Assembly: GCF_963555475.1 (NCBI RefSeq)
Contig: NZ_CAUVVR010000001.1
Source of the DNA: an uncultured Selenomonas sp.
GTDB taxonomy: Bacteria > Bacillota > Negativicutes > Selenomonadales > Selenomonadaceae
Length of the DNA stretch: 64,000 bases
Direction: 5' to 3' (one strand)
Positions 4,127-46,707 of the stretch are shown in pieces. The position numbers were made by a program, and so were the translations under genes. Below the pieces are notes generated by a model. That model was not told the origin of the DNA, did no database searches, and saw only the letters and a list, made by a program, of their open reading frames with translations. Within the stretch, counting starts at the first letter, position 1. Each line of letters opens with the position of its first letter.

Positions 4127-5158
4127 ATGAAGAAGTATCGTGTCGCCATCCTCGGCGCAACGGGTGCCGTCGGGCAGGAGTTTCTGAATCTCATCGAGGA
4201 GCGCAAGTTCCCGTTCTCGGAGCTGCGACTGCTCGCGTCCAGCCGCTCGGCGGGCAAGAAAATCGCCTTTATGGGCAAGGAGTATACCGTACAGGAGACG
4301 ACGGCCGATTCCTTTGAGGGGATCGACATTGCCCTCTTTGCGGGCGGCGCGGCAAGCAAGGAGTTTGCCCCCCATGCAGTTAAGGCGGGTGCGGTCGTCA
4401 TTGACAATTCAAGCGCGTTCCGCATGGATCCGGAGGTGCCGCTCGTCGTACCCGAGGTCAATCCCGAGGCAATCAAGAAGCATAAGGGCATCATTGCCAA
4501 TCCGAACTGCTCCACCATCATCATGGTGATGGGGCTCAAACCCCTCTATGATATCGCAAAAATTCGCCGCATCGTCGTCTCCACCTATCAGGCGGTCTCG
4601 GGTGCGGGCAAGGAGGGCATGGCGGAACTTGAGGAGCAGGTCGCGGCACTGTCCTCGGGCAAGGACGCACAGGCGAACATCCTGCCCGTCGGAAAGCTGC
4701 CGAAGCACTATCAGATTGCGTTCAACCTCATCCCACAGATCGATGTCTTCATGGACAACCTCTACACAAAAGAGGAGATGAAGATGATCGACGAGACGAA
4801 GAAAATCATGGAGGACGACAGCCTGCGCATCACGGCGACCACCGTGCGCGTGCCCGTCTACCGCAGCCATGCGGAGTCCGTCAACGTCGAGTTCGAGAGT
4901 GAGGTCTCGCTCGATGCGGCACGCAAGGCAATTGCGGCGTTCCCCGGCATCGTCCTGCGTGACAACCCGTCGGAGCAGGAGTATCCGATGCCACTCTTTA
5001 CCTCCGGCAAGACCGATGTCGAGATCGGCCGTCTGCGCCGCGATGAGTCGACCGACAACGCGCTGAACTTCTGGATCTGCGGCGACCAGATTCGCAAGGG
5101 CGCGGCACTCAACGCACTCCAGATCGCAGAGTACATGATCGCACACGAACTCGTTTGA
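4127..5158 (+). CDS. asd: Aspartate-semialdehyde dehydrogenase
   Basis: MKKYRVAILGATGAVGQEF Rossmann N-terminus and active-site NPNCSTI. ATG 4127 follows GGGGAG. The longer tracked ORF from 4061 overlaps the dapB end and is unlikely to be used. Confidence 0.93.
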   Translation: MKKYRVAILGATGAVGQEFLNLIEERKFPFSELRLLASSRSAGKKIAFMGKEYTVQETTADSFEGIDIALFAGGAASKEFAPHAVKAGAVVIDNSSAFRMDPEVPLVVPEVNPEAIKKHKGIIANPNCSTIIMVMGLKPLYDIAKIRRIVVSTYQAVSGAGKEGMAELEEQVAALSSGKDAQANILPVGKLPKHYQIAFNLIPQIDVFMDNLYTKEEMKMIDETKKIMEDDSLRITATTVRVPVYRSHAESVNVEFESEVSLDAARKAIAAFPGIVLRDNPSEQEYPMPLFTSGKTDVEIGRLRRDESTDNALNFWICGDQIRKGAALNALQIAEYMIAHELV

Positions 5159-5992: not shown

Positions 5993-6027
5993 TTGTCTAC
6001 CGTTTGTCTACGGAATTACTTGTCTAC
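5993..6027 (+). repeat. Three direct TTGTCTAC repeats (candidate integrase arm-type sites, left arm)
   Basis: TTGTCTAC at 5993-6000, 6004-6011 and 6020-6027. The same octamer recurs in the same orientation at 46350-46368 near the other prophage end. Confidence 0.5.
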
Positions 6028-7221
6028 AATCTGCGCGAAGAGGGCGACGGTTGCACGCTGCATCTCTTCAGTATCATGCGCGTAGAGGTTCTGGGTAATG
6101 GAGACATCCGCATGACCGAGCCGGGCAGCAACATCGATAGGGTTTGCCCCCGCCTCGATGAGTTTGGTTGCGTGTGTATGGCGAAAGCTGTGTGAGTTCA
6201 GACCCAAGGAATGCAGCCGCCCATGCAGAGCCATATAGTAGATCGGTAGTCCGAACTTGTCCGTACAGACGAGCGGGCAAAGATGAAAATCTGTCGGCGG
6301 GGTTTCTATCTTCGGCGCGGTATAAAGACCGCGCTCGGCGGTTTCATAGACACGCTGGTAGGCGTTGCCAAAACGAAGCTCGTTCTCTGTTTGCACCCGC
6401 TTCCAATGGGCGAGCTCTGTCATCAGGATTTCGTCCATATAAATCTCGCGCGTGCTTGTTCGGGTCTTCGGATCGGCGAAATAACACTGACGCTTTGCGC
6501 CCACGGTTGCGAGCTGGCGATGGATGTAGATTCTTTGATTCTGCATATCGACATCGTCCCACATAAGCCCGAGTACTTCACCGATGCGTGCGCCCGTGTG
6601 ATATGCGAGAATCAATGGTATGTGGTACTTGTGTCCGCGTGGGAACTTTTCCATGAGCGCATGGAACTGTTCCCCCGTGATGATGGTACGTTCTACAATT
6701 TTCGCAGGTGCTGATCGGGGGACGCGGATATCGGTGCACGGGTTGCTGAGGATGAGCTCTGCCGGATAGACCGCGTATTTCAGTGCAAGGGATAAAATAG
6801 ACTTGGAAAGGGAAAGTGATCTTTTGGAAAGCCCGCGTTCGGCAAGCCGTTTCATCCAGGCATCGACATCGCGGGGGCGGATATCCTGCACGTGGAGATC
6901 GCCGAGGAGCGGGATGATCCGTACGCGGATCACAGAACTATAGTTGTGATAGGTTCCGCGTGTCACATTCGGGCGCATGACATTCTCCAGCCACGCAGCG
7001 AGATAGTCGCGCAGCTTGATCCGCTCGCTGGTGATGCCGATGTTGCCGGACTTCCAGTCTGCGTAGGCGGCGACACCTGCGTCATACGCCTCCTGCTCCG
7101 TCGCATAGCCGCCCTTTTCGATGGCACGACGTTTCCCTGTGGTCGGGTTCTTTCCCGCGTCAAAGGAGTAGGAGTAGGTGCTGCCGCGTCTCCTCGTGCG
7201 GATCGTTGCCTTCTTTGCCAT
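6016..7221 (-). CDS. int: Tyrosine recombinase / phage integrase
   Basis: MAKKATIRTRRRGSTYSYSFDAG... N-terminal arm-binding-type domain. C-terminal catalytic region ...TGARIGEVLGL...HSFRHTHATKLIEAG...LGHADVSITQNLYAH (R-H-R-Y). ATG 7221 is preceded by GGAGG. Confidence 0.93.
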   Translation of the reverse strand: MAKKATIRTRRRGSTYSYSFDAGKNPTTGKRRAIEKGGYATEQEAYDAGVAAYADWKSGNIGITSERIKLRDYLAAWLENVMRPNVTRGTYHNYSSVIRVRIIPLLGDLHVQDIRPRDVDAWMKRLAERGLSKRSLSLSKSILSLALKYAVYPAELILSNPCTDIRVPRSAPAKIVERTIITGEQFHALMEKFPRGHKYHIPLILAYHTGARIGEVLGLMWDDVDMQNQRIYIHRQLATVGAKRQCYFADPKTRTSTREIYMDEILMTELAHWKRVQTENELRFGNAYQRVYETAERGLYTAPKIETPPTDFHLCPLVCTDKFGLPIYYMALHGRLHSLGLNSHSFRHTHATKLIEAGANPIDVAARLGHADVSITQNLYAHDTEEMQRATVALFAQIVDK

Positions 7222-7370
7222 AATAAAACACCTCCGAAGATTCGTTGTGGAATAATCCCCGAAGGTGTGATATACTTTCGCTTGAGAGTGCGGGCATATC
7301 TCCTCGGGGATTGCTTGCTTCACCGTTCATCGTGTTGGTAGCACGGTGGGCGGTTTTTTTTTGTCAAAAG

Positions 7371-8105
7371 TTATTTTGTGCTTTTCCAATCAGGGCCCTG
7401 TTTCGTGTGCATCCCTTTTGTAATGTACTGGTCATAGAGCCATTTTGATCGGTTATCTTTATGTTGCACCTGTGCAACGGCAATCGCAATGTCGTATTCG
7501 TCGAATAAACTTCCGTAGCTATTGCCCGATGGGGCCGTGAAAGAACTATCGTGTGCCAACACATTAGATGAAAAGCGGCGAATCATGGTATCAGCTAGAT
7601 CAAGTGCTGCGCTTTTATCCGTTGTAGGATTTACGACCACAGTCATTGTGATAAGTTTTTTGTTATAGTCCACCTCAATGTAAGCGTCAACCACCATCGG
7701 GTGATAGCGTTTATCTTTCATTTCTTGAACGGTTTCAGGTATCGCCTTGTTGATGGAAGCTTCTTCTTTTGTAGCTTGTGCTTCTCTTTCCTTTTTCTCT
7801 GCTGCCTCTTGTTCTTTCTGAGCGGCCTCTTGAGCCTTACGTGCTTCCTTTTCGGCTCTCTCCTGCTCTTTCTGAGCTTGTTCAGTGATGCGCTTTTGCT
7901 CCATCTCTGCGCGTTGCTCAGGAGTCGACGAAGTTGATACACCTCCGATGACTGAAACAATCAGAACGCCGACGGCTATGCCCGCGCGAACGAGCCACTT
8001 CTTGTAGTTATCCTTTTGAAAAAAGAACATATACACAGAAATTGCAAGCAGTACAAGGATAGATACTGCCGAAGCAAAAAATATGATCGCGAAAAAAGTG
8101 CCCAT
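7371..8105 (-). CDS. Membrane-anchored protein of unknown function in the lysogeny module
   Basis: Two N-terminal hydrophobic helices (FFAIIFFASAVSILVLLAISVYMFFF; AGIAVGVLIVSVIGGV), a K/E/A/Q-rich coiled segment and a ~130-aa C-terminal domain. Located between the repressor and integrase on the same strand. The start may be TTG 8135 or ATG 8105. Confidence 0.6.
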   Translation of the reverse strand: MGTFFAIIFFASAVSILVLLAISVYMFFFQKDNYKKWLVRAGIAVGVLIVSVIGGVSTSSTPEQRAEMEQKRITEQAQKEQERAEKEARKAQEAAQKEQEAAEKKEREAQATKEEASINKAIPETVQEMKDKRYHPMVVDAYIEVDYNKKLITMTVVVNPTTDKSAALDLADTMIRRFSSNVLAHDSSFTAPSGNSYGSLFDEYDIAIAVAQVQHKDNRSKWLYDQYITKGMHTKQGPDWKSTK

Positions 8106-8142
8106 TGCAGCGCCTCTCTTTTTTTTCCTACCCAATATCCTC

Positions 8143-9108
8143 TTAGAGGGTCACGTTATACATAACGACCTTACCGATCAGGCGAAGATCATCGCAATTA
8201 TCATAACTAAATACAATATCCCGAAAGGAAGGATCGCTACTGTCCGGTCGAAAGACGTATTCTTCGTGTATCCTATCATTGAAAAAGCGTTTCACAGAGT
8301 ATTCTCCACAATTCTGGATGACAACAATATCACCGTCTGCTACAGAGGAAGAATCACTGTTTTTTAACACCGCAATGATTGCACCGTCCTCGATCACATT
8401 ATTCATGCTCTCGCCATTGACTGGCATGAGGATGATGTTCGGATTACGAGCATATCGTCCAAGCATCAGATCTGGGACGGAAACGCGGGGAAGTTCTTCT
8501 ATCGCCTCTACTTCTTCCAAAGCACCGGCGGAAACTCCATAAGGGACGTATTGATATAGGTAGGATTCCGTGTAGGGAGCACGGGAATTCTCTTGCATGG
8601 CATCTTCGTAGCGTGCCTCTTTGGACTCCTCATATTTATCGACGTCATCTCCAAATATTTCGGGAACTATATCGTCGTACATATCGTGGTCGTGGAGAAA
8701 TTGGGGGATTGACTTGCCATAAACATCACAGATTTCTTTTAGGAGAAATTCACTGATGGGGGATAGTCCTTCTTCGTACGCTTCAAGGAGACTCACAGGG
8801 ATTTTGGTTTCAGAAGAAAGTTCTTCAAGTGAAAAATTATAGCTTTCACGCTCATCTTTTAGTGCGTTTGAGTAAAAGCATCCAGTGCCAAAGTCATCCT
8901 CGTAGTAACAATCTTCCCCTACGAGATAATCAAGCGAGCAGTCAAGCACTTTGCTAATATCGCGAGCTTTTTGAACATCCAATTTTTTTCGCTTTCCGGT
9001 CATGATATCCGATAGCGTCGAAAAAGGAATGCCGGCTTTTACTGCTAAATCCTTCATTTGAAGCCCGCGTATATCTAAAGCGATTTTTATTCTATCAGAG
9101 ATGCTCAT
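8143..9108 (-). CDS. CI/LexA-type phage repressor (two XRE HTH domains plus S24 peptidase domain)
   Basis: N-terminus MSISDRIKIALDIRGLQMKDLAVKAGIPFSTLSDIMTGKRK (HTH_XRE), second HTH FSLEELSSETKIPVSLLEAYEEG. C-terminal S24 autoproteolysis motifs PVNGESMNN (Ser) and YSVKRFF (Lys). Confidence 0.88.
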   Translation of the reverse strand: MSISDRIKIALDIRGLQMKDLAVKAGIPFSTLSDIMTGKRKKLDVQKARDISKVLDCSLDYLVGEDCYYEDDFGTGCFYSNALKDERESYNFSLEELSSETKIPVSLLEAYEEGLSPISEFLLKEICDVYGKSIPQFLHDHDMYDDIVPEIFGDDVDKYEESKEARYEDAMQENSRAPYTESYLYQYVPYGVSAGALEEVEAIEELPRVSVPDLMLGRYARNPNIILMPVNGESMNNVIEDGAIIAVLKNSDSSSVADGDIVVIQNCGEYSVKRFFNDRIHEEYVFRPDSSDPSFRDIVFSYDNCDDLRLIGKVVMYNVTL

Positions 9109-9135
9109 AGCTGATCCCTCCTAAACTTTATATCT

Positions 9136-9164
9136 ATTATACTATATCTACGGGTTTAGGTAAA
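9136..9164 (-). promoter_or_regulatory. Candidate leftward (repressor maintenance) promoter
   Basis: On the minus strand: TTTACC (9164-9159), 17-nt spacer, TATAAT (9141-9136), ~28 nt upstream of the repressor ATG. Operator copy 1 starts 8 bp upstream of the -35. Confidence 0.45.
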
Positions 9165-9171
9165 TAAAAAA

Positions 9172-9258
9172 ATACGGTATTCCGAAACATTTTCAAATCC
9201 ATTGTTGACTATTTCGGAATACCGTATTATTATATAAACATGATACGGTATTCCGAAA
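9172..9258. promoter_or_regulatory. Three copies of a 16-bp operator ATACGGTATTCCGAAA in the divergent immunity region
   Basis: Exact copies at 9172-9187 (+), 9212-9227 (inverted) and 9243-9258 (+). Centre-to-centre spacings are ~40 and ~31 bp. The middle copy fills the spacer of the rightward promoter. Confidence 0.7.
9205..9233 (+). promoter_or_regulatory. Candidate rightward early promoter (PR-like)
   Basis: TTGACT (9205-9210), 17-nt spacer that is entirely operator copy 2, TATTAT (9228-9233). Confidence 0.6.
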
Positions 9259-22739: not shown

Positions 22740-23189
22740 ATGGCGAACGAGCAGAATCTGATTCCGGCATCGAAACGAAGTAAGAGCGAAGCTAGAGAGA
22801 ATAGCAAAAAAGGCGGCATCGAGAGCGGAAAATCCCGTCGCCGCAAAAAGGCATTGCGGACAGCCCTCAAAGAAGCAGTTTCGCTCACATTGAAAGAGTT
22901 ACACCCCGATCTCAGAGATGGGATCATGAAGTCGGCAAAGCTCAGCGATGCGGAGCTTACTGTTGGTGATGCCGTACTTGGCAGCCTTATCCGCAGCGCG
23001 TGCGCAGGAAACTCACAGATGATGAAAGTGTTATTCGATACCATCGGCGAGAGTGCTGACATTCGGATTCGGGAGCACGAACTGCGGCTCAAGGAAAAGG
23101 CGCTTAATACCGGGCAGATGGATACCGCACTGAATGTCACGATCACAACGAAGGGGGAGCGGGACATTGAATATAGCGAAGGAGGTTAA
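22740..23189 (+). CDS. Putative terminase small subunit
   Basis: 149 aa immediately upstream of and overlapping TerL. Basic N-terminus [32 protein letters not shown] as seen in many Firmicutes phage TerS-position proteins. The call is based on position. Confidence 0.5.
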
Positions 23190-24450
23190 TCCGCATTTCG
23201 AATCTTTCCTGTTCGACTGGGAAAGTAAGATTTACTTCCTCGTCGGCGGATATGGATCGTCGAAGTCGTATCACGTCGCACTGAAAGTTATCCTGAAGCT
23301 CCTCAGCGAACGCAGGACGGCGCTTGTTGTGCGTGAGGTTTATGACACCATACGCGACAGCTGCTTTTCGCTCTTTCGGGAGATTGTGGAGGACATGGGG
23401 CTGGGCGCGATGATCGTGTTCAACGCCTCACCGATGCAGATGCGTTTCCCCAACGGCAGCAAGATCGTGTTCAAGGGGATGGATAAACCCGCAAAACTCA
23501 AGTCCATCAACAACATCAGCCTCATCTGGGTGGAGGAGTGCAGCGAACTCAAGTATGCGGGCTTTAAGGAGTTGCTCGGACGTCTGCGCCATCCGACGCT
23601 GCCACTGCACATCATCCTGACGACCAATCCCGTGGCGCGGTCAAACTGGACATACCAGCATTTCTTTGAGAGCCGTGGATTGGATGATAAAGAGTTCTAT
23701 GTGCGTCGCGTCATGTGCGAGGGAAACACATACTACCATCACTCCGTTGCCGACGACAACCTGTTTCTGCCGGTGGATTACATCGAGCAGCTCGATGAGA
23801 TGCAGGCGTACGACGCCGATCTTTATCGCATCGCCCGTCTTGGGCAGTTCGGCGTCAATGGTAGGCTTGTCCTGCCGCAGTTTGAAGTCATGCCGCATGA
23901 TGAGGTTATGGCAGCGGTCGAAGAAATCCCGCGTAAGTATTTGCGCGTCGGCATGGACTTTGGTTTTGAGGCATCGTACAACGCCGTCGTCCGCATGGCA
24001 ATCGACCATGAAAACAAGTGGCTCTATCTCTATTGGGAGTACTATCGCAACCACATGACTGATGACGAGACGGCAGATGCGCTTGAGGAGTTCGTGCGGA
24101 CGCGTGAGCGCATCAAGGCAGACTCAGCAGAGCCGAAAGCAATCCGCTACTACCAGAAACGCGGGTTTAACATGGTTGCGACACGCAAGAACAACGGCGG
24201 CAGCCGCCATTCGCGTCTTGACAACACACGCAAGCTGAAGCGTTTTCGCCGTATCATCTGTTCGGATGCGTGTGTGCACTGTATTGACGAACTCAAAGAG
24301 CTTACCTATGCAGTGGATCGGGACGATGAGATCATCCCGGACGAGTTCAATCGGGATGCGCACACGTTTTCCGCGATGTGGTACGGGCTGGATGATTATG
24401 ACGTGGTTGATATCAAGCATCGATTCACGAAGGAGGACTTTGGATTATGA
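23134..24450 (+). CDS. Terminase large subunit (PBSX/Terminase_3-like)
   Basis: VNPHFESF...[14 protein letters not shown] Walker A, IWVEECSE Walker B, C-terminal RNase-H-like nuclease region. The true start may be TTG 23167. Confidence 0.9.
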
Positions 24451-25817
24451 GGGTACACACTACAAAGGAGGTGCTCGACCCGCAGGACATTGCGGATATT
24501 CTGCAGCGACATGAGCGCGATTTCGTGTCTCATGTGCTGGAGCTCAAGGACTACTATGTCGGCAAACACAAAATACTCAATAAGGAGCAGCGTTCTGTCA
24601 GCGCACCCAACAACAAGATCGTCGCGAATTATTGCGAGTACATCACCAACATGAGCACGGGCTTTTTCATGGGTCAGCCGGTTGCATACTCCTCGGTGTC
24701 GGGAGATACGGACGCCGTGAGCGCGCTGCAGGACGTGTTCCGGTACAACGATGAGGCGGACGGCAATCTGCGTCTTGCGGCGGAGGCGAGTATCACAGGG
24801 GCGGCGTATGAGGTGCTTTACGTTGACGCAGAGGCAGAGATCCGCTTTTGTGCCGTTCCATCGGAAGAGGTTATTCTTGTTCTTGATGCGACGCTCGAGG
24901 AGAATCTGATCGCCGCCATCCGCCGCTACCGTGTTGTAAGTCTTGACGGGTCGACGTACAACGATTATGTGGATGTTTACGACGCACACAGCGTCACAAG
25001 CTACGACTACACCGCCGATAAACTCATCCAAAACAGCGCGCCCGTACCGCATTACTTTGACGGCGTGCCCGTGATCGAATACCCCAACAACGATGCCCGT
25101 CGCGGTGATTTCGAGGGCATTATGACGCTCGTGGACGCGTACAACAAGGCGCAGAGCCTCACGCTCGACGATATGGAGGATTTTACGGACGCTTATCTCG
25201 TGCTTAAGGGCATGGGCGGCATGAACGGGGAGGACGCAGCAGAGCTGCGGCGCAACAAGATGATGACGCTCGATGAGGGCGGCAGCGCGGAGTGGCTGAT
25301 CAAGAATCTCAACGATACATATATCGAGAACATCAAGACGCGGCTCCAGAACGATATCCACAAATTCAGCGCGATCCCCGACATGAGCGACGATGCTTTT
25401 GCCGGCAATACATCCGGTGTTGCCATCAAGTACAAGCTCATCGGGCTGGAGCAGGTGCGCAGCCGCAAGGAGCGTGGTTTCAAGAAGGGACTGCAGCGGC
25501 GCATTGAGTTGATTGCGGGGATGCTCAAAACTAAGAGCAAGGCGGACATTGATTTTCGAGATATCGAGATCACCTTTACGGCGAATATCCCCGCCAACAA
25601 TCAGGAACAGGCAGAGATCGTCAAGACACTCTACGGGCTTGTCTCGCAAAAGCGTCTGCTCTCGCTCCTGCCGTTTGTCACGGATCCAGCCGAGGAGCTG
25701 GAGGAGCTGAAAAAGGAGCAGGAGGAGAATGATTACGGAATAGGGGTGGGCGCACATGGCGAAGACGAAAGCGACACCGACGGAGAAGTACTGGAAAAAG
25801 CGGCAGGAAGAACTTGA
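24447..25817 (+). CDS. Portal protein (SPP1 gp6-like)
   Basis: 456 aa. ...[27 protein letters not shown]... and overall layout typical of SPP1-family portals. ATGA overlap with TerL. Confidence 0.9.
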
Positions 25818-27600
25818 AAAGAAGTGGGACAAGAAGAGCCGCGAGGAGATTGAGCGAGAGCTGCGCGCCTACTATGAACACTCCCTCGCCCATATCGAAA
25901 AGGACATCAGTGCACTTTATCAGCGGTTCGCGACCGACAACGGAATGGACATGGCGGCGGCGCAGCAGCTCCTCACGGGCAAGGAATATCGTGTATGGCG
26001 CATGGACATTGCCGAATACGTCAAGGAGATCAACGTAACAGGCAATCAGGAGCTTTTGCGTGAGCTGAACACCCTCGCCATGCGCAGCCGGATCACGCGT
26101 CTTGATGCACTCAGGGCGGGTACACTCAAAGAAATGGTGCTCCTCTCTGAGAAGTCCGAGAAGGCGATGAAAAAGTTCCTGAAATCGGGTTATGAGGATT
26201 TTTACTATCATGGGCTCTACGAGATCGGGAAGAAGCGCGGCCTTGAGGGGGCTGTGTCCCTCGTGGACGGAGAAAAGCTCGAGCGCGTCCTGCGTGTCCC
26301 GTGGAGCGGTAAGAATTACTCTAAGCGGATCTGGACGAATGGCGCGAAGCTTGCAAAGACCATCCAGCAGAACATCATCGCCGCCGCACATCGTGGCGTA
26401 TCCGTGCAGGAAATGACGCGCGTCATTCGTCAGAAAATGGGCGTCGGTACGAAAGAGGCGGTGCGGCTCGTCCGTACCGAACTCAACTACGTGCAGAATC
26501 AGGCGGCGCTTCACTCCATCAAGGATGCGGGGATGAAATACTACCGCTTCATTGCGACGCTTGACAAGCGCACCTCAAATCTCTGCCAGTCCCATGATGG
26601 TGATGTGTTCCCCGTGGAGGAGGCGATGCCGGGGAAGAATATGCCGCCCCTGCATCCGCATTGCCGCTCCGTCATTTCGGGTTGTCTCAAAGGTGAGTAT
26701 AGGCCGCAGAGCGGCACGCGCACCGCACGAGACGAGAACGGCAAGAATGTGCTTGTCCCTGCGAACATGAAATATGACGATTGGCGAGCCGTCTATTTGG
26801 ACAAGAAGCTGACACTCGATGAGTGGAAGGCGGGCAATGTCGCATCACAGGCGACAAATGCGACGGGAGGATTGAATGCGGGCGTGCAAAGTGGTACAAT
26901 AAAATCAAACTTATGGAGTACGCCAAGTGGGTGGCAAATGTCTAGCGGATACAAGTACATTATGGGTGCCGCTAGGGCGAGCGGGGTTGAATACAGGAGT
27001 GTCAGCACCTTTGCTAAGTTGCCGACCGACGCTGAAATCATATCGCGATTGGCAGGTGGAGATAAAACCAAGGGGTCTTGTGCGTCACTTGCACTTGCAT
27101 ACGCAGGAAATAAGGCGGGATTAGATGTAATCGATTTTAGGGGCGGGCAGAGTCAAGGCTTTTTCTCAAGGTATTACAATTTGAAGAACATAGCGCATTT
27201 TTCTGGCGTTGTGTCAAGGGAAATTACCCTCAAGAGATGCGCAACGGATTTGGCAAAATATCTCAAAGGAAATGAGATTGTTGACGGGAAAGAATATTGC
27301 TTAATTGCGGGGGCGCACGCATCAGTTATAAGACGGCTGAATGGAGTTCTTGAATATCTAGAATTACAATCACCAGAAACAACAGGACACGTAAAAAATG
27401 GATGGAATCGTTTTGATAGATATGGCAATGCTGCGACGTGTCTATATCGTCGGTTTGGGTGTAAAAAGACTGTTGCGAGCCGCGCAATACTTATCGAAAT
27501 AGATTCTTTCTTAAACAATCCGGAAATAAGGGGCATGCTTGGCTATATCAATACAGATGTGAACGCTCAGATGAAGGGGGTTACCGGAAATGTCAAGTGA
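25756..27600 (+). CDS. MuF / SPP1 gp7-like head morphogenesis protein fused to a ~230-aa C-terminal Cys/His domain of unknown family
   Basis: MuF core to ~aa 305 (KNYSKRIWTNG..., LDKRTSNLCQSHDGDVF, PPLHPHCRS). From ~aa 384 (nt ~26905) the sequence is unrelated, with GSCASLALAY (Cys442, nt 27079-27081) and AGAHASVIR (His521, nt 27316-27318). G+C drops over the same interval. Confidence 0.85.
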   Translation: MAKTKATPTEKYWKKRQEELEKKWDKKSREEIERELRAYYEHSLAHIEKDISALYQRFATDNGMDMAAAQQLLTGKEYRVWRMDIAEYVKEINVTGNQELLRELNTLAMRSRITRLDALRAGTLKEMVLLSEKSEKAMKKFLKSGYEDFYYHGLYEIGKKRGLEGAVSLVDGEKLERVLRVPWSGKNYSKRIWTNGAKLAKTIQQNIIAAAHRGVSVQEMTRVIRQKMGVGTKEAVRLVRTELNYVQNQAALHSIKDAGMKYYRFIATLDKRTSNLCQSHDGDVFPVEEAMPGKNMPPLHPHCRSVISGCLKGEYRPQSGTRTARDENGKNVLVPANMKYDDWRAVYLDKKLTLDEWKAGNVASQATNATGGLNAGVQSGTIKSNLWSTPSGWQMSSGYKYIMGAARASGVEYRSVSTFAKLPTDAEIISRLAGGDKTKGSCASLALAYAGNKAGLDVIDFRGGQSQGFFSRYYNLKNIAHFSGVVSREITLKRCATDLAKYLKGNEIVDGKEYCLIAGAHASVIRRLNGVLEYLELQSPETTGHVKNGWNRFDRYGNAATCLYRRFGCKKTVASRAILIEIDSFLNNPEIRGMLGYINTDVNAQMKGVTGNVK

Positions 27601-27784
27601 TACGCCTGTTTGGGAAAAAAGATACGAGGGTAGTAAGCTTTGGTGGAAGAATATTCCGGGGGTTATTGGCGAGGTCGTTTTTAGTTTTGACAAGAAAAGA
27701 GAGTACAATCTGTTTCAGGATTATGACAAGCTAACACCGGAACAGAGAAAACTCGTCGATGCGGAGAATCCTCTGATTCCTTGA
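27590..27784 (+). CDS. Small hypothetical protein overlapping the MuF-fusion stop (candidate cognate immunity/partner)
   Basis: 64 aa, MSSDTPVWEKRYEGSKLWWKNIPGVIGEVVFSFDKKREYNLFQDYDKLTPEQRKLVDAENPLIP. 11-nt overlap with the upstream ORF, same low-GC block, followed by a terminator. Confidence 0.5.
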   Translation: MSSDTPVWEKRYEGSKLWWKNIPGVIGEVVFSFDKKREYNLFQDYDKLTPEQRKLVDAENPLIP

Positions 27785-27797
27785 CAATCAAACACAC

Positions 27798-27830
27798 AAG
27801 CACTTACGAATTGTCGTGAGTGCTTTTCTT
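27798..27830 (+). terminator. Hairpin plus U-rich tract inside the late operon
   Basis: aagcacttacg / cgtgagtgctt (11 bp including one G-U), 6-nt loop, then ttctt. Confidence 0.55.
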
Positions 27831-27855
27831 ATGCCAATTTTGAGGAGGTGGGGCT

Positions 27856-28167
27856 ATGCCCGATAGTGTAATGATTGACGCCGTACGATATGCGATTCTG
27901 CGCGTCAAAGAGCCGCTGATTCTGGATGGGCGTGCTTGTAACGCCGTTGTTGAGTATAACACGGCACAGATCAAGATACTCGAGGGTGGGAACATCGGCG
28001 AGGGTAATGTGGCAAAGCTGCTCATGCACGAGATTGTCCATGCACTTCTTTTCGAACGAGGCATGACTGAGGCGGCAGCAGATGAGGAGCTTGTTTCGGA
28101 GCTTGCGGCGGGCTTTGTGAATCTTGTGCGGGCGAATCCGCAGCTTGTCGAGTTTTTGCAGAAATAG
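27856..28167 (+). CDS. Small HExxH-motif protein (putative zinc metallopeptidase-like)
   Basis: 103 aa. The only clear motif is AKLLMHEIVHALLFERG. Sits between MuF and the scaffold gene. Confidence 0.55.
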   Translation: MPDSVMIDAVRYAILRVKEPLILDGRACNAVVEYNTAQIKILEGGNIGEGNVAKLLMHEIVHALLFERGMTEAAADEELVSELAAGFVNLVRANPQLVEFLQK

Positions 28168-28250
28168 GAGGAATTGCTATGAACGGGATCCGAGCGCCGG
28201 CGCATATCCGTGTCGGTATAAAACTAGCACTCACACAGAGGAGGAATGAA

Positions 28251-28841
28251 ATGAGCGATAATCTGTTTGATTTCGACCTGCAGCGCTTCGGCGACGATGC
28301 AGGTGATTCCGCAGGAGCGGACAATGCGAGCGACGACAAGCCAAAGACTGATCCTGCCGATGATAAGCAGGACGACACGCAGGCGAAGATTGACGCTGCT
28401 GTCGCTGCCCGTCTTGCCGATGAAAAGGCGAAGTGGGAGAAGGCGTATCAGAAAAAGGCTGCGGCGGACAAAAAGGAGGCCGAGCGGTTGGCGAAGCTCT
28501 CCGAGGACGAGCGCCGTGCGGCGGAACTCGAGGCACGCAACAAGGAACTTGAGGAGAAAGATCAGGAGATCCGGCGCAAGGAACTCAAGCTTGAAACGGT
28601 GAAAGTGCTCGCCGATCGGAGCCTCCCCGTTGCGTTTGCGGACTATCTGATTGCCGAGGACAGTGAGTCCACACTCAAGCGCATCACTGCGTTTGAGAAG
28701 GAATACAAGAAGGCCGTAGAGGCAGGCGTCAACGAAAAGCTCAAGGGGAAAGCCCCTGCAGCGAGTGGCGGTGCAGGTGACTCTGCGGGCATTGAGAATG
28801 GTTTCTTCAAGGCCATTTATGACAATCAGGCAAAGAGGTAA
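28251..28841 (+). CDS. Capsid scaffolding protein (DUF4355-like)
   Basis: Starts MSDNLFDFDLQRFGDD after AGAGGAGG. Long charged coiled coil (KAKWEKAYQKKAAADKKEAERLAKLSEDERRAAELEARNKELEEKDQEIRRKELK). Directly upstream of the major capsid gene. Confidence 0.75.
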   Translation: MSDNLFDFDLQRFGDDAGDSAGADNASDDKPKTDPADDKQDDTQAKIDAAVAARLADEKAKWEKAYQKKAAADKKEAERLAKLSEDERRAAELEARNKELEEKDQEIRRKELKLETVKVLADRSLPVAFADYLIAEDSESTLKRITAFEKEYKKAVEAGVNEKLKGKAPAASGGAGDSAGIENGFFKAIYDNQAKR

Positions 28842-28847
28842 GAAAGG

Positions 28848-29777
28848 ATGACGACTATGAAGAATAAGATGAGCTTTGATCTCCAGCGTTTCTCGGACAC
28901 GGGGTACCTGAAGGACAATCTGCAGGGCTTCGTGCCGAAGCCGATCGCGGCGGACATCATCGCGGACATTGTGCGCGGCTCGTCCGTAATGCGGCTCTCG
29001 ACGGTGCAGGAGATGACCTCCGAAACACAGAAATTCCCCGTTATGACGGCGGGGCCCGGAGCATACTGGGTCGGCGAGACGGAGCGCATCAAGACATCGG
29101 TCGCTGAGTGGATTTTCCCCGAGCTTGTCGCAAAGAAGATCGCTGTCATCGTACCGTGCAGCCGTGAGAAGCTCGAGGATACGACAATCAACGTGTTCGG
29201 CGTTGTTCGCCCGTATATTGCGGAAGCGTTCTACAAGGCGATTGATTCGGCATGTCTCTTCGGCACGAACTCGCCCTTTGCGAAGAACATCTTCGGTGTT
29301 GCGAGTGCTGCGGGGAACGTGATCGCGGAGGAGACGAATCCGAAGCTTGACCTCGATATCTCCGATGTAATGGCACTTGTCGAGAATGGCGGGCTTGACG
29401 TGAACGGCTTCGTCGCAGGCTACGACCTCAAGAACAGCCTGCGCAAGCTCCGCGACGGGAACGGCAATCAGCTCTACGTTACTGGTGTCGACTCGAGTAC
29501 GCTCTATTCGCAGCCGATTGAGTTCTCGCGTAATGGTGCATGGGACAAGACGAAGGCGCGCGCAATTGCGGGCGATTGGAAGTATTCCATCATTGGCATC
29601 CGCGATCAGATTCAGTATGAGACGCTGCGCGAGGCAACGCTGCAGTCGGTTACAATGAGTGACGGCAAGCCCCTGAGCCTTGCTGAGAATGACATGGTGG
29701 CGATCAAGGTAACGATGCGCCTCGGGTTCCTGCCGGTCAAGGAGAACGCATTCGCTGCACTCAAACCGAAGGCGTAA
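28848..29777 (+). CDS. Major capsid protein (HK97 fold)
   Basis: 309 aa. Position after the scaffold gene. N-terminus MKNKMSFDLQRFSD followed by typical HK97-family segments (GFVPKPIAADII..., AYWVGETERIKTS). The start may be 28848 or 28857. Confidence 0.85.
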   Translation: MTTMKNKMSFDLQRFSDTGYLKDNLQGFVPKPIAADIIADIVRGSSVMRLSTVQEMTSETQKFPVMTAGPGAYWVGETERIKTSVAEWIFPELVAKKIAVIVPCSREKLEDTTINVFGVVRPYIAEAFYKAIDSACLFGTNSPFAKNIFGVASAAGNVIAEETNPKLDLDISDVMALVENGGLDVNGFVAGYDLKNSLRKLRDGNGNQLYVTGVDSSTLYSQPIEFSRNGAWDKTKARAIAGDWKYSIIGIRDQIQYETLREATLQSVTMSDGKPLSLAENDMVAIKVTMRLGFLPVKENAFAALKPKA

Positions 29778-45712: not shown

Positions 45713-46314
45713 AAAAAGGAACATCGACCATAGCACCCCGCACCTGCCGAGAGTGCGGGGCTACTTTTGAGGGCGGGCCACGCGCGTGGTACTGCCCCGA
45801 CTGCCGTGAGATAAGAAAGAAATTGCAGAAAGCTCGGTATAACGAGCGACGCAAACGGGGCTTGTCCCTCTCGTTGGGAGAGAGCATTGGCCGCTGCGAG
45901 GTGTGCGGCCGTGAATTTGTCTACGTAGCCGCGCGGCAAAGGTACTGCTCTGATTGCGCCCAGGAGGCGTGGAAAGCCTCTGATCGAAGGCAAGGATTAT
46001 TGTGGTATTACGCAAACGATACCGAAGAAAGGAGAAAAGCCAAAGGACAAAGACAAAAAGAGCGACGTAAGGGGCGCAAGGGAAAACAAAGAGATTCCGA
46101 TTTGTTGGGGGAGTGGAAATCTCTAACGAAAAAATGGGCGGTAAAGGACTGCGTGGTATGTGGTAAAGAAATCTCAAATAGAAGACGGCATTATTGCTCT
46201 GAAAAATGCCATATGATTGGGTCTGCGTATGCCACGGCATTGTCGCACTATCTCGCAGGAGATATTAGATCATGCCCCACGTGGGAAGAGTGGGTAGAAC
46301 AACATAAGAAATAG
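45709..46314 (+). CDS. Triple zinc-ribbon protein with basic linker
   Basis: Three CxxC...CxxC modules: CRECGATFEGGPRAWYCPDC, CEVCGREFVYVAARQRYCSDC and CVVCGKEISNRRRHYCSEKC. A K/R-rich stretch RRKAKGQRQKERRKGRKGKQR lies between modules 2 and 3. Confidence 0.6.
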   Translation: MKKGTSTIAPRTCRECGATFEGGPRAWYCPDCREIRKKLQKARYNERRKRGLSLSLGESIGRCEVCGREFVYVAARQRYCSDCAQEAWKASDRRQGLLWYYANDTEERRKAKGQRQKERRKGRKGKQRDSDLLGEWKSLTKKWAVKDCVVCGKEISNRRRHYCSEKCHMIGSAYATALSHYLAGDIRSCPTWEEWVEQHKK

Positions 46315-46351
46315 AGGGGACAGCGTATCAATCGCCGTCCCCTCTGTTTTT
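46313..46351 (+). terminator. Terminator after the cassette
   Basis: agaggggacagcg / cgccgtcccctct (13 bp, one mismatch), 7-nt loop, gttttt. Confidence 0.7.
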
Positions 46352-46377
46352 GTCTACAATTTGTCTACCATGCCTAC
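46350..46377 (+). repeat. TTGTCTAC direct repeats (candidate integrase arm-type sites, right arm)
   Basis: TTGTCTAC at 46350-46357 and 46361-46368, plus a degenerate TGCCTAC at 46371-46377. Same octamer and orientation as 5993-6027. Confidence 0.5.
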
Positions 46378-46504
46378 AAAAACCACTGAAAAATACTCAG
46401 ATATTCTTTGTTGGCGAATCTCGTTGAAAATTCTGCAATCCTGCGCCGTAATTGGGCGCGTCAATGTTTTCTGTAATTGAATCACCACACCTATCTAATA
46501 CCTA

Positions 46505-46526
46505 GTAGGAAGTAAGTCCTTTTTTG
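46505..46526 (+). repeat. attR core (22-bp direct repeat)
   Basis: Identical to 5916-5937. Confidence 0.75.
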
Positions 46527-46627
46527 TGCTTTTAAACAAGGGCGAGTGTTCCGCGTACATCCTTTTATGGCGCGGAGCGCGGGGGATTTTATAGATTGTA
46601 TGCAAGAAAAAAGGAATGCTTGTTTTC

Positions 46628-46656
46628 TTGAAAAAATGGGGAGATTTTGCTATAAC
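46628..46656 (+). promoter_or_regulatory. Candidate dcw promoter (Pmra)
   Basis: TTGAAA (46628-46633), 17-nt spacer, TGcTATAAC extended -10 (46648-46656), ~75 nt upstream of the mraZ ATG. Confidence 0.6.
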
Positions 46657-46667
46657 TGTTAGTAAAA

Positions 46668-46707
46668 GTGGTGGATTGTGGTGGAATGTGCCACACAGTG
46701 GCGATGG
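46668..46707 (+). promoter_or_regulatory. Four tandem 10-bp GTG(G/C)-initiated units, candidate MraZ boxes
   Basis: GTGGTGGATT GTGGTGGAAT GTGCCACACA GTGGCGATGG. Exact 10-bp phasing just downstream of the -10 element. Confidence 0.55.

Follow-up and report, generated by a model that had tools for sequence, protein, structure and literature searches.

A predicted papain-fold domain on a prophage MuF head protein and its DUF7675 partner as a probable mobile toxin/immunity cassette in Selenomonas

The stretch of DNA analysed here (the window: 64,000 nucleotides (nt) of contig NZ_CAUVVR010000001.1, from an uncultured Selenomonas sp.) holds a prophage in which a 614-amino-acid (aa) head protein of the MuF family (open reading frame (ORF) 25756..27600, + strand, from the ORF list) ends in a Cys/His domain and is followed by the gene of a 64-aa protein, DUF7675 (27590..27784, +). 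In our view the two genes probably encode a polymorphic toxin (or effector) of the MuF family and the immunity protein cognate to it, arranged as a mobile cassette on a conserved carrier, the MuF core. The toxin reading follows from the domain filling the toxin slot in two unrelated delivery architectures, and from its being interchangeable with established toxin domains, i.e., ADP-ribosyltransferase (ART), deaminase and WHH nuclease; the immunity reading of DUF7675 follows from its being a small, dedicated partner that is always adjacent to the domain and sometimes survives alone. Such exchange in one slot, together with a dedicated partner, is the defining behaviour of polymorphic toxin/immunity systems (PMC3482391, PMC5576092).

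The N-terminal part of the fusion protein is an ordinary MuF core, just as an earlier reading of the letters alone (hereafter the original prediction) had it. This MuF / SPP1-gp7-like region (aa 1-360, 25756..26835, +), presumably the capsid-targeting carrier, is matched by phrog_115 over aa 2-352 (E 2e-106), by PF04233 over aa 201-307 (E 6.7e-18, 65.9 bits against a cut-off of 29.6, in the Pfam scan) and by TIGR01641 (E 3.9e-26, in the NCBIfam scan). From about aa 384 the tail leaves the head-morphogenesis families, as had also been claimed, and these last ~230 aa match nothing in Pfam (E <= 1), NCBIfam, PADLOC or the sequences of the PDB, the latter searched with phmmer and with a 114-sequence profile. 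The sole PDB sequence match, to an aldehyde dehydrogenase, was rejected as a chance match of LGYINT. The tail does match phrog_7104 ('unknown function') over aa 409-612 (E 7e-29), and it belongs to a large family: a word-indexed search returned at least 128 homologues of 36-47% identity, and an exhaustive search of 1.84 billion representatives gave 921 clusters at 50% identity, 832 of them at E <= 1e-10. The domain occurs on at least 541 viral contigs and reaches the C-terminus of the protein in 150 of the 150 listed matches. Its hosts range over Bacillota, Negativicutes, Actinomycetota, Fusobacterium (Fusobacteriota), Bacteroidota, Fibrobacter (Fibrobacterota), spirochaetes, Pasteurellaceae and Saccharibacteria. 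The two motifs singled out at the outset, GSCASLALAY (Cys442) and, 79 residues later, AGAHASVIR (His521), keep their Cys and His in all of 121 homologues, and 17 positions are invariant in both the 114- and the 121-sequence alignments (T438, G440, S441, C442, S444, G455, D460, S466, H521, the YLELQ of 534-538, R566, F567 and N599).

The alignments, an AlphaFold2 model and Foldseek place a papain-fold Cys/His domain at aa ~405-614 (26968..27597, +). In the model (predicted local distance difference test score (pLDDT) 91.7, predicted template-modelling score (pTM) 0.91) residue C59, which is Cys442 (codon 27079..27081, +) and the predicted nucleophile, begins a helix (58-70); H138, which is His521 (27316..27318, +) and the predicted general base, opens a strand (138-145); and E153/Q155, i.e., Glu536 (27361-27363, +) and Gln538 (27367-27369, +), lie at the end of the next strand (148-153). 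A papain-type model with Cys at the N-terminus of a helix and with His and Glu on successive strands is what the order of the two motifs had led the original prediction to expect, and it is not a decoration or scaffold fold. Despite weak scores, nearly every Foldseek match in the PDB is a thiol enzyme of the papain fold: lymphostatin, UfSP1/2, AvrPphB, staphopain, PaTox, phytochelatin synthase, Josephin, the herpesvirus M48 deubiquitinase, OspI and MINDY. Amongst viral models (BFVD) there is a weak match to a 'Papain fold toxin 1, glutamine deamidase' protein (E 9e-3). By this model the tail, of ~210 aa, is a thiol enzyme domain of the papain fold that had not been modelled before, and Cys442 / His521 / Glu536-x-Gln538 form its invariant constellation. 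Its SC-H-ExQ signature and the spacing of 15 between His and the acidic residue resemble those of Tox-PL1/OspI (NC-H-DxQ), which would make glutamine deamidation as plausible as peptide cleavage.

The order of Cys and His and the size of the domain are also those of CHAP and NlpC/P60-type Cys/His amidases, and phage particles often carry such enzymes, so that the domain could be a virion-associated cell-wall hydrolase aiding DNA entry. We find this highly improbable. None of the 114 members matches a papain-fold Pfam model at E <= 0.1, CHAP and NLPC_P60 included, and neither of these two folds is amongst the top 50 Foldseek matches in the PDB; DUF7675 has neither a signal peptide nor a membrane segment, which implies that it acts in the cytoplasm; and hydrolases of this sort normally sit on tail proteins, not on MuF. 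Since no member of the family matches those models, the tail is a distinct family without a Pfam model of its own.

The original prediction had left both the domain and its small partner unassigned, which holds for the tail but not for the partner: this is PF24723 (DUF7675) and phrog_6473, both without a known function. The 64-aa protein scores 61.9 bits against a cut-off of 27, its aa 8-62 aligning to model positions 1-56 of 65, and lacks the last ~10 model positions; its ORF overlaps the stop of the fusion gene by 11 nt, as had been read. In viral contigs the ORF that follows the domain is DUF7675 in all 80 loci with downstream sequence (worst E 2.5e-22), Butyrivibrio virus Ceridwen and Streptococcus phage IPP68 amongst them, and it usually overlaps the stop of the toxin gene by 4-20 nt. 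In contigs from one genome per species, with 81 evaluable loci, DUF7675 lies on the same strand in 70 and is convergent, immediately downstream on the opposite strand, in 11; the convergent loci (L140, L149, L168, L183, L185, L191/L192, L201, L202) are mostly from Bacteroidota and Fibrobacter. Because the 11 seeming exceptions hold the gene on the other strand, the linkage amounts to 81 of 81 in two orientations, and DUF7675 is the obligatory genomic partner of the Cys/His domain. The convergent orientation implies that it is transcribed there independently of the phage late operon.

The reverse does not hold, as the partner can stand alone. Searched the other way round, viral contigs yielded at least 508 DUF7675 genes, and of 79 such loci that were fetched 66 have the Cys/His domain and ~10 are true orphans (~10/76, about 13%). 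The orphans belong to arrays of small ORFs that follow MuF proteins with other tails (L204, L234, L241, L256, L257) or a MuF without a tail (L222), or are found elsewhere. Another recurring family of small ORFs, of 66-90 aa ('...GY..L.F.G.W.GYQ...ILVKD.EIRL.T..E'; L241:2488-2953, L256:2482-2953, L185:8967-9191), is encoded in such arrays with a MuF tail on one side and an orphan DUF7675 gene on the other, and is a further candidate immunity family. A profile search puts the size of DUF7675 at 4,664 clusters (90% identity), almost all of them ~70-aa stand-alone 'hypothetical proteins'; the profile was required to see the family, a single-sequence search giving 5 matches. Two members (P0126 and P0127) have 135-136 aa and about twice the bit score, and are apparently tandem duplications in one polypeptide. 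In the model of the window's protein (pLDDT 84), three or four short strands are accompanied by a helix at the C-terminus. Between the window and locus L003, tail and DUF7675 genes are both under strong purifying selection, with ratios of non-synonymous to synonymous substitutions (dN/dS) of 0.08 and 0.11 (0.11 for DUF7675) at a dS of 0.36. In the literature searched no mention of DUF7675, and no link of it to any toxin, was found.

Complete linkage and the overlap of start and stop are equally expected of an obligate co-factor, and DUF7675 resembles no known immunity fold; it might then be a chaperone or packaging adaptor for the domain and not an immunity protein. Against this stand the orphans without the domain in ~13% of the viral loci, one of which follows a clean replacement of the toxin, and the 11 genome loci where DUF7675 is convergent and separately transcribed. 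In addition, the position immediately downstream of a toxin is the canonical one of immunity genes, and the same partner goes with carriers on phage heads and with those linked to FtsK/SpoIIIE, although the two kinds would each require an adaptor of their own. We therefore regard a chaperone or adaptor role as quite unlikely.

The cassette nature of the pair is seen when viral contigs are searched with the MuF core alone and the tails then classified. The cores of L086 and L088 are 94-95% identical to that of the window (aa 1-383) and carry unrelated tails of 249 and 263 aa, with HEFGH and HEIGH motifs, which no DUF7675 follows. L087, with a core 90% identical, ends in an ADP-ribosyltransferase exotoxin (ADPrib_exo_Tox, PF03496, E 8e-16); L089-L094 (cores ~69% identical) have other HExxH tails; more distant cores (to 30% identity) have DUF4258 or BURPS668_1122-type Toxin-deaminase tails (L106-type loci); and four relatives with a core identity of ~53% have no tail at all (L099, L102-104). 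The inverse case is L003, whose core is 37% identical to the window's whilst its tail and DUF7675 are 94% and 91% identical. The swapping of tail and small ORF as a cassette, which the original prediction had envisaged, is thereby seen from both sides: near-identical cores with unrelated tails, and a near-identical tail with its DUF7675 on a distant core. What moves, from one MuF core to another unrelated one and also onto non-phage carriers, is a single low-G+C unit made up of tail, DUF7675 and hairpin.

The clearest case is that of L234. It is near-identical to L013 where the core ends, and the match resumes ~20 nt upstream of DUF7675 and continues through the hairpin; between these points an HExxH tail and a 109-aa ORF in L234 replace the Cys/His tail of L013 (L013:5000-6300 against L234:1750-3460). 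Judged from its sequence, L234 is a case of a displaced toxin with the immunity gene retained, a pattern known from contact-dependent inhibition (CDI) and Rhs loci. Related small ORFs of 76-109 aa, ending ...IPNFYD..EL.PK.G.WD, follow such tails in L204, L220 and L224, and are candidate immunity proteins against the HExxH tails.

These relatives also bear on whether the domain is a morphogenetic or self-processing protease that matures the head by cutting scaffold, capsid or MuF, with DUF7675 as a regulator of assembly. For such a protease speak phrog_595, labelled 'head maturation protease', which aligns to aa 11-603 of the fusion protein, the weak BFVD match to the 'capsid maturation protease' of Arthrobacter phage Vibaki (E 2.5e-3), the absence of any canonical prohead protease seen between the portal and capsid genes, and the earlier suggestion that Tox-PL1 on MuF processes proteins in assembly or release (Zhang et al. 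2012, PMC3482391). The recognised prohead protease families (S78/U35, ClpP-like, S49) gave no Pfam, NCBIfam or PHROG match beyond the phrog_595 label. However, the domain is absent from L086 and L088, which have 94-95% of the core and the same scaffold gene start, and no tail is found in L099 and L102-104; since near-identical relatives lack it, heads of this type do not need the domain. It is found, besides, on non-phage carriers and in isolated chromosomal pairs, and with a foreign base composition, and a maturation protease needs no dedicated partner that survives as an orphan. We accordingly hold a head-maturation role to be very unlikely, and keep to the polymorphic toxin and its immunity gene.

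The cassette (26904..27848, +: tail domain, DUF7675 and hairpin) is marked by its base composition. The fall in G+C at the start of the tail, counted by hand in the original prediction, persists in a proper sliding window, where it goes from 0.57 (26600-26899) to 0.41 (27100-27399) and returns to 0.51-0.54 past 27800. By segment, G+C is 0.555 in the core, 0.44 in the cassette (26904-27848) and 0.53-0.56 past it, with 0.558 in the scaffold gene, and at third codon positions (GC3) 0.70 in core and portal, 0.42 in the tail and 0.45 in the DUF7675 gene; amongst the 600-nt windows along the 64 kb the cassette ranks second-lowest (z = -3.3). L003 likewise has a low-G+C island in a high-G+C phage (0.586 / 0.437 / 0.58), and the two are ~91% identical in nucleotides over 26904..27848, on unrelated cores.

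The breakpoints of exchange are a conserved junction peptide and a conserved terminator-like hairpin. The junction, or pre-toxin linker (NVASQATNATGGLNAGVQSGT, aa 361-383, 26836..26904, +), forms the 5' recombination boundary: it is common at the DNA level to the window, L003, L086 and L088, encoding NVASQATNA.G.LNAG.QSGT (nt 26836-26904), and the peptide is found in 10 loci of 3 core lineages, followed by at least 4 unrelated tails. L086 and L088 part from the window just 3' of it (~nt 26903), where G+C drops. At the other end, the similarity of window and L003 extends through DUF7675 and the hairpin to ~27848. The hairpin with its U-tract (AAGCACTT...AGTGCTTTTCTTATG, 27798..27833, +) is the 3' boundary element shared by the cassettes. 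It too had been noticed beforehand, and the terminator scan recovers it as a stem-loop at 27798..27825 with a 12-bp stem (5 G-C pairs) and a loop of 4, followed by the U-tract TTTTCTTAT, which is the pattern of intrinsic terminators; its folding energy is -19.4 kcal/mol (z = -2.45), and its sequence pattern is unique within the window and found in 0 of 100 shuffles. By these sequence features it is terminator-like, of the Rho-independent kind. A pattern with variable gaps, one with fixed spacing having given nothing, finds the element also closing the cassettes of L003 (two copies), L058, L061, L086 and L088, with outer stem and U-tract invariant and an inner stem that varies with its pairing kept. 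The two copies in L003 (6893-6928 and 7659-7694) bracket an insert of ~730 nt with a 116-aa ORF (7309..7659), which suggests that the hairpin delimits successive modules inserted between MuF and scaffold genes.

Inside the junction a consensus scan finds a promoter-like site, TTGAAT-17-TGgTACAAT with an extended -10 (26872..26900, +), whose sequence is kept in L003, L086 and L088. As the number of such sites in the region equals that expected by chance, it is weak evidence and of uncertain role; paired with the hairpin, it would let the cassette act as an autonomous transcription unit of the moron type.

The domain is not confined to phage heads, as there are complete homologues of 320-404 aa without a MuF domain. 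In L083 a domain-bearing 330-aa protein is encoded downstream of the gene of a 1,112-aa FtsK/SpoIIIE ATPase, and between the two lies the gene of a 318-aa protein that shares its first ~125 residues (36% identity, E 3e-21) and ends in a WHH/colicin-DNase nuclease; from the sequences, this is a textbook polymorphic-toxin pair, with one predicted trafficking domain and two predicted toxin domains. L085 resembles L083, and L084 is an isolated chromosomal pair. Amongst 74 complete proteins from species-representative genomes, 23 have PF04233 (MuF) as carrier, 5 PF06152 (Phage_min_cap2), 2 VG15 and 4 a WXG100-like carrier, the last below threshold (23.9 against 27.3 bits), and 15 loci with short carriers lie within a few kb of an FtsK/SpoIIIE ATPase. 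L083 and L085 (L083:1-15000, L085:1-15200) also hold PP2C, Ser/Thr kinase and vWA genes, one or two large FtsK/SpoIIIE or HerA-like ATPases, and TerY_C, AIM24, transglutaminase and ATP-grasp genes; they may be an uncharacterised FtsK-dependent export or conflict system, not a canonical type VII one. A different arrangement is that of 795-799-aa MuF proteins (L181:6213-8597, from Candidatus Saccharibacteria TM7-H1, and L184, L194, L195), with an N-terminal CdiA_C-like segment (24.2 bits, just under the cut-off), a central MuF and the C-terminal Cys/His domain. Going by these matches, they would be two-effector 'polyvalent' MuF proteins in an episymbiont lineage.

If the pair is a toxin and its immunity protein, the fusion protein and DUF7675 would be made together late in infection, with translational coupling suggested by the 11-nt overlap, and DUF7675 would bind the domain and block its active site in the producing cell. 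The MuF core would dock on the portal and bring a few copies of the fusion protein into the procapsid, as in SPP1 gp7, and the protein would be ejected with the DNA upon infection; for SPP1 gp7 itself the docking on the portal, the few copies in the procapsid and the ejection with DNA are established. The thiol enzyme would then attack an amide bond of a cytoplasmic target, as peptidase or glutamine deamidase, whilst a matching DUF7675 would protect cells, including lysogens that hold just an orphan copy. The two MuF toxins characterised so far, Apk2 and Bxa, show toxicity upon expression, and small, non-enzymatic immunity proteins encoded next to them neutralise them by occluding the active site (PMC12226406, PMC11699363). 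Staphostatins block staphopains in a like manner. By analogy DUF7675 would most likely be a tight-binding inhibitor of the thiol active site.

Several observations weigh against this interpretation. The Foldseek similarity of the tail to the PDB is weak (best E 3e-3, TM <= 0.38), and with so distant a likeness to the papain-fold enzymes of solved structure the domain may be a peptidase, a deamidase or a transferase. The DUF7675 model resembles no solved structure and no known immunity or inhibitor fold in a fold search of the PDB (best E 1.3), and the DUF7675 proteins of the window and L003 are without the C-terminal W..FF.DR motif that at least 90% of the others keep. In the mirror-tree comparison, the correlation of domain with DUF7675 (r 0.45) is only moderately stronger than that of domain with carrier (r 0.28). 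Finally, a lethal toxin delivered into the phage's own new host is biologically awkward, and the true role may be host manipulation.

This last point leads to a serious alternative, in which the capsid-delivered enzyme is a non-lethal effector of host takeover or anti-defence that cleaves or modifies a specific host protein, e.g., one of defence or stress, to the benefit of the incoming phage, and DUF7675 only silences it in the producer until packaging. It differs from a toxin/immunity pair only in the consequence for the target cell, so that the anatomy described above (fold, exchange of tails, linkage to DUF7675) is the same for both. Killing the phage's own host by injection would be counter-productive; MuF-fused enzymes have been argued to be effectors injected with DNA against host systems (Iyer et al. 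2017, PMC5512222); and the many invariant polar residues around the Cys (T438, S441, S444, D460, R462, S466, R566, N599) suggest a defined substrate and not broad proteolysis. On the other hand, the domain occupies the slot of bona fide killing toxins (the WHH sibling in L083, the ART and deaminase tails on related cores), orphan DUF7675 genes in small-ORF arrays fit protection from incoming toxins better than an assembly-time inhibitor, and the FtsK/SpoIIIE-linked WXG100-like carriers are unrelated to phage entry. The non-lethal effector is on balance possible but rather unlikely. As a bolder proposal, which taken as a whole we offer tentatively and do not expect to hold, the domain would be no killer but a new capsid- and secretion-delivered thiol enzyme that cleaves or deamidates a defined cytoplasmic substrate, for instance a protein of defence, translation or the stress response; DUF7675 would represent a new class of inhibitors, miniature in size and tight in binding; and promoter-like site, pair and terminator would make up an autonomous moron whose inhibitor, in lysogens, gives resistance to related phages, as a currency of superinfection exclusion amongst gut phages. 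The toxin/immunity pair is what we retain.

The genomic setting is that of an integrated, siphovirus-like prophage within the 64-kb window, where DNA polymerase, primase-helicase, tape measure and tail fibre genes are also found. The large terminase subunit gene TerL (23134..24450) is followed by the portal gene (24447..25817, +), which lies directly 5' of the fusion gene, and then by the scaffold (28179..28841) and major capsid protein (28848..29777) genes; this order, with an integrase (6016..7323, minus strand) and a gene for a 321-aa repressor-like protein beside it (8143..9108), fits a temperate phage. Rfam and tRNA scans of the window were empty. Between hairpin and scaffold gene lies a 103-aa ORF (27856-28167, +) with an HEIVH (HExxH) motif, a match to phrog_1233 (function not annotated; E 5e-17) and a weak one to Peptidase_M91; it is an optional module, with 86-88% identical copies in L089, L092 and L094, absent from L086 and L088, and with distant relatives amongst hypothetical proteins of Lactobacillus phages. 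The minimum of G+C in the window (0.38 at 8651-9250) falls in 7371-9108 (minus strand), adjoining the integrase, which encodes the repressor-like protein, with an N-terminal helix-turn-helix and a C-terminal LexA/CI-type region as judged from sequence, and a 254-aa lysine/glutamate-rich membrane protein; this is probably a lysogeny module plus moron. There is a second low-G+C patch at 46101-46700.

If these interpretations are correct, the Cys/His domain would be a third, large MuF toxin family beside Apk2 and Bxa, its toxicity being predicted, and a Pfam domain without known function, DUF7675, would have a testable one. The loci also offer unusually clean examples of cassette exchange, with junction peptide, terminator hairpin and a displaced toxin whose immunity gene is retained. 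The presence of one pair on phage heads and on FtsK/SpoIIIE-linked WXG100-like proteins links the phage-borne and secretion-system pools of toxins, and finding the target of the enzyme could point to a novel weak spot of gut anaerobes or to an anti-defence strategy not seen before.

Compared with known systems, we place domain and DUF7675, whose roles are predicted from sequence, as a new family of toxin and immunity protein in the established class of MuF polymorphic toxins. MuF toxins are, to our knowledge, abundant in gut prophages, with only two activities, those of Apk2 and Bxa, studied experimentally. As in the MuF polymorphic toxins described earlier (Jamet et al. 2017, PMC5576092), the N-terminal MuF lies right after the portal gene of a temperate phage, the C-terminal enzymatic extension is variable, a small ORF (<150 aa) is immediately downstream, different toxins sit on homologous cores and the toxin domain is shared with other secretion-linked carriers. 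Apk2 is a (p)ppApp synthetase and Bxa an ADP-ribosyltransferase (PMC12226406, PMC11699363); unlike these, the present tail matches no Pfam family and is neither of the two.

Another close system is Tox-PL1 ('Papain fold toxin 1, glutamine deamidase'), which is reported in fusion with MuF and with Imm35 as its partner (Zhang et al. 2012, PMC3482391); a Bacteroides MuF 'glutamine deaminase' with a small ORF, both predicted (PMC11699363), possibly belongs beside it. Since a MuF fused to papain-fold Tox-PL1 was described in 2012 (PMC3482391), the class is not new; what is new is a large family without a Pfam model, the predicted immunity role of DUF7675 and a well-resolved anatomy of exchange (junction peptide, hairpin boundary, displaced toxin). 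Both domains have a papain-type fold, predicted for the present one, and are C-terminal on MuF and on WXG-type type VII substrates, and their signatures (NC-H-DxQ in Tox-PL1; SC-H-ExQ in the tail, with S441 and E536 invariant and a His-to-acid spacing of 15) are analogous, not identical; the structural matches of the tail to the viral Papain fold toxin 1 protein (E 9e-3) and to OspI (E 0.4) are weak. Unlike Tox-PL1, the 114 members match neither the Pfam model of that family nor any other papain-fold model at E <= 0.1, and the partner is DUF7675 (PF24723 being the only match), not Imm35.

Staphostatin is the co-operonic inhibitor that guards the cytoplasm of the producer from staphopain, and is an 8-stranded barrel. 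There, too, a papain-fold thiol enzyme has the gene of a small dedicated protein immediately downstream, and the complex (1pxv) is amongst the Foldseek matches; the similarity is weak, however (E 0.036, TM 0.30), the route of delivery is different, and DUF7675, of ~65-70 aa with 3-4 short strands and one helix, is unlike the barrel. With CDI/Rhs cassettes and their pre-toxin motifs (e.g., VENN) the present one shares a junction peptide that marks the variable toxin, displacement of toxins by recombination and orphan immunity genes kept downstream (L234 against L013). It differs from them in having a phage head protein as carrier, a shared terminator-like hairpin as 3' boundary and a junction motif (NVASQATN..LNAGxQSG) seen only in one group of related phages. 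The 328-404-aa members, with their helical WXG100-like N-termini beside FtsK/SpoIIIE ATPases and a WHH-nuclease sibling, resemble the WXG/LXG toxins of type VII secretion, to which carrier type the window's copy does not belong. They are unlike the canonical type VII secretion system of the T7SSb kind in their sub-cut-off WXG100 match (23.9 against 27.3 bits), in the neighbouring PP2C, kinase and vWA genes and in having no recognisable EsaA/EssA/EssB.

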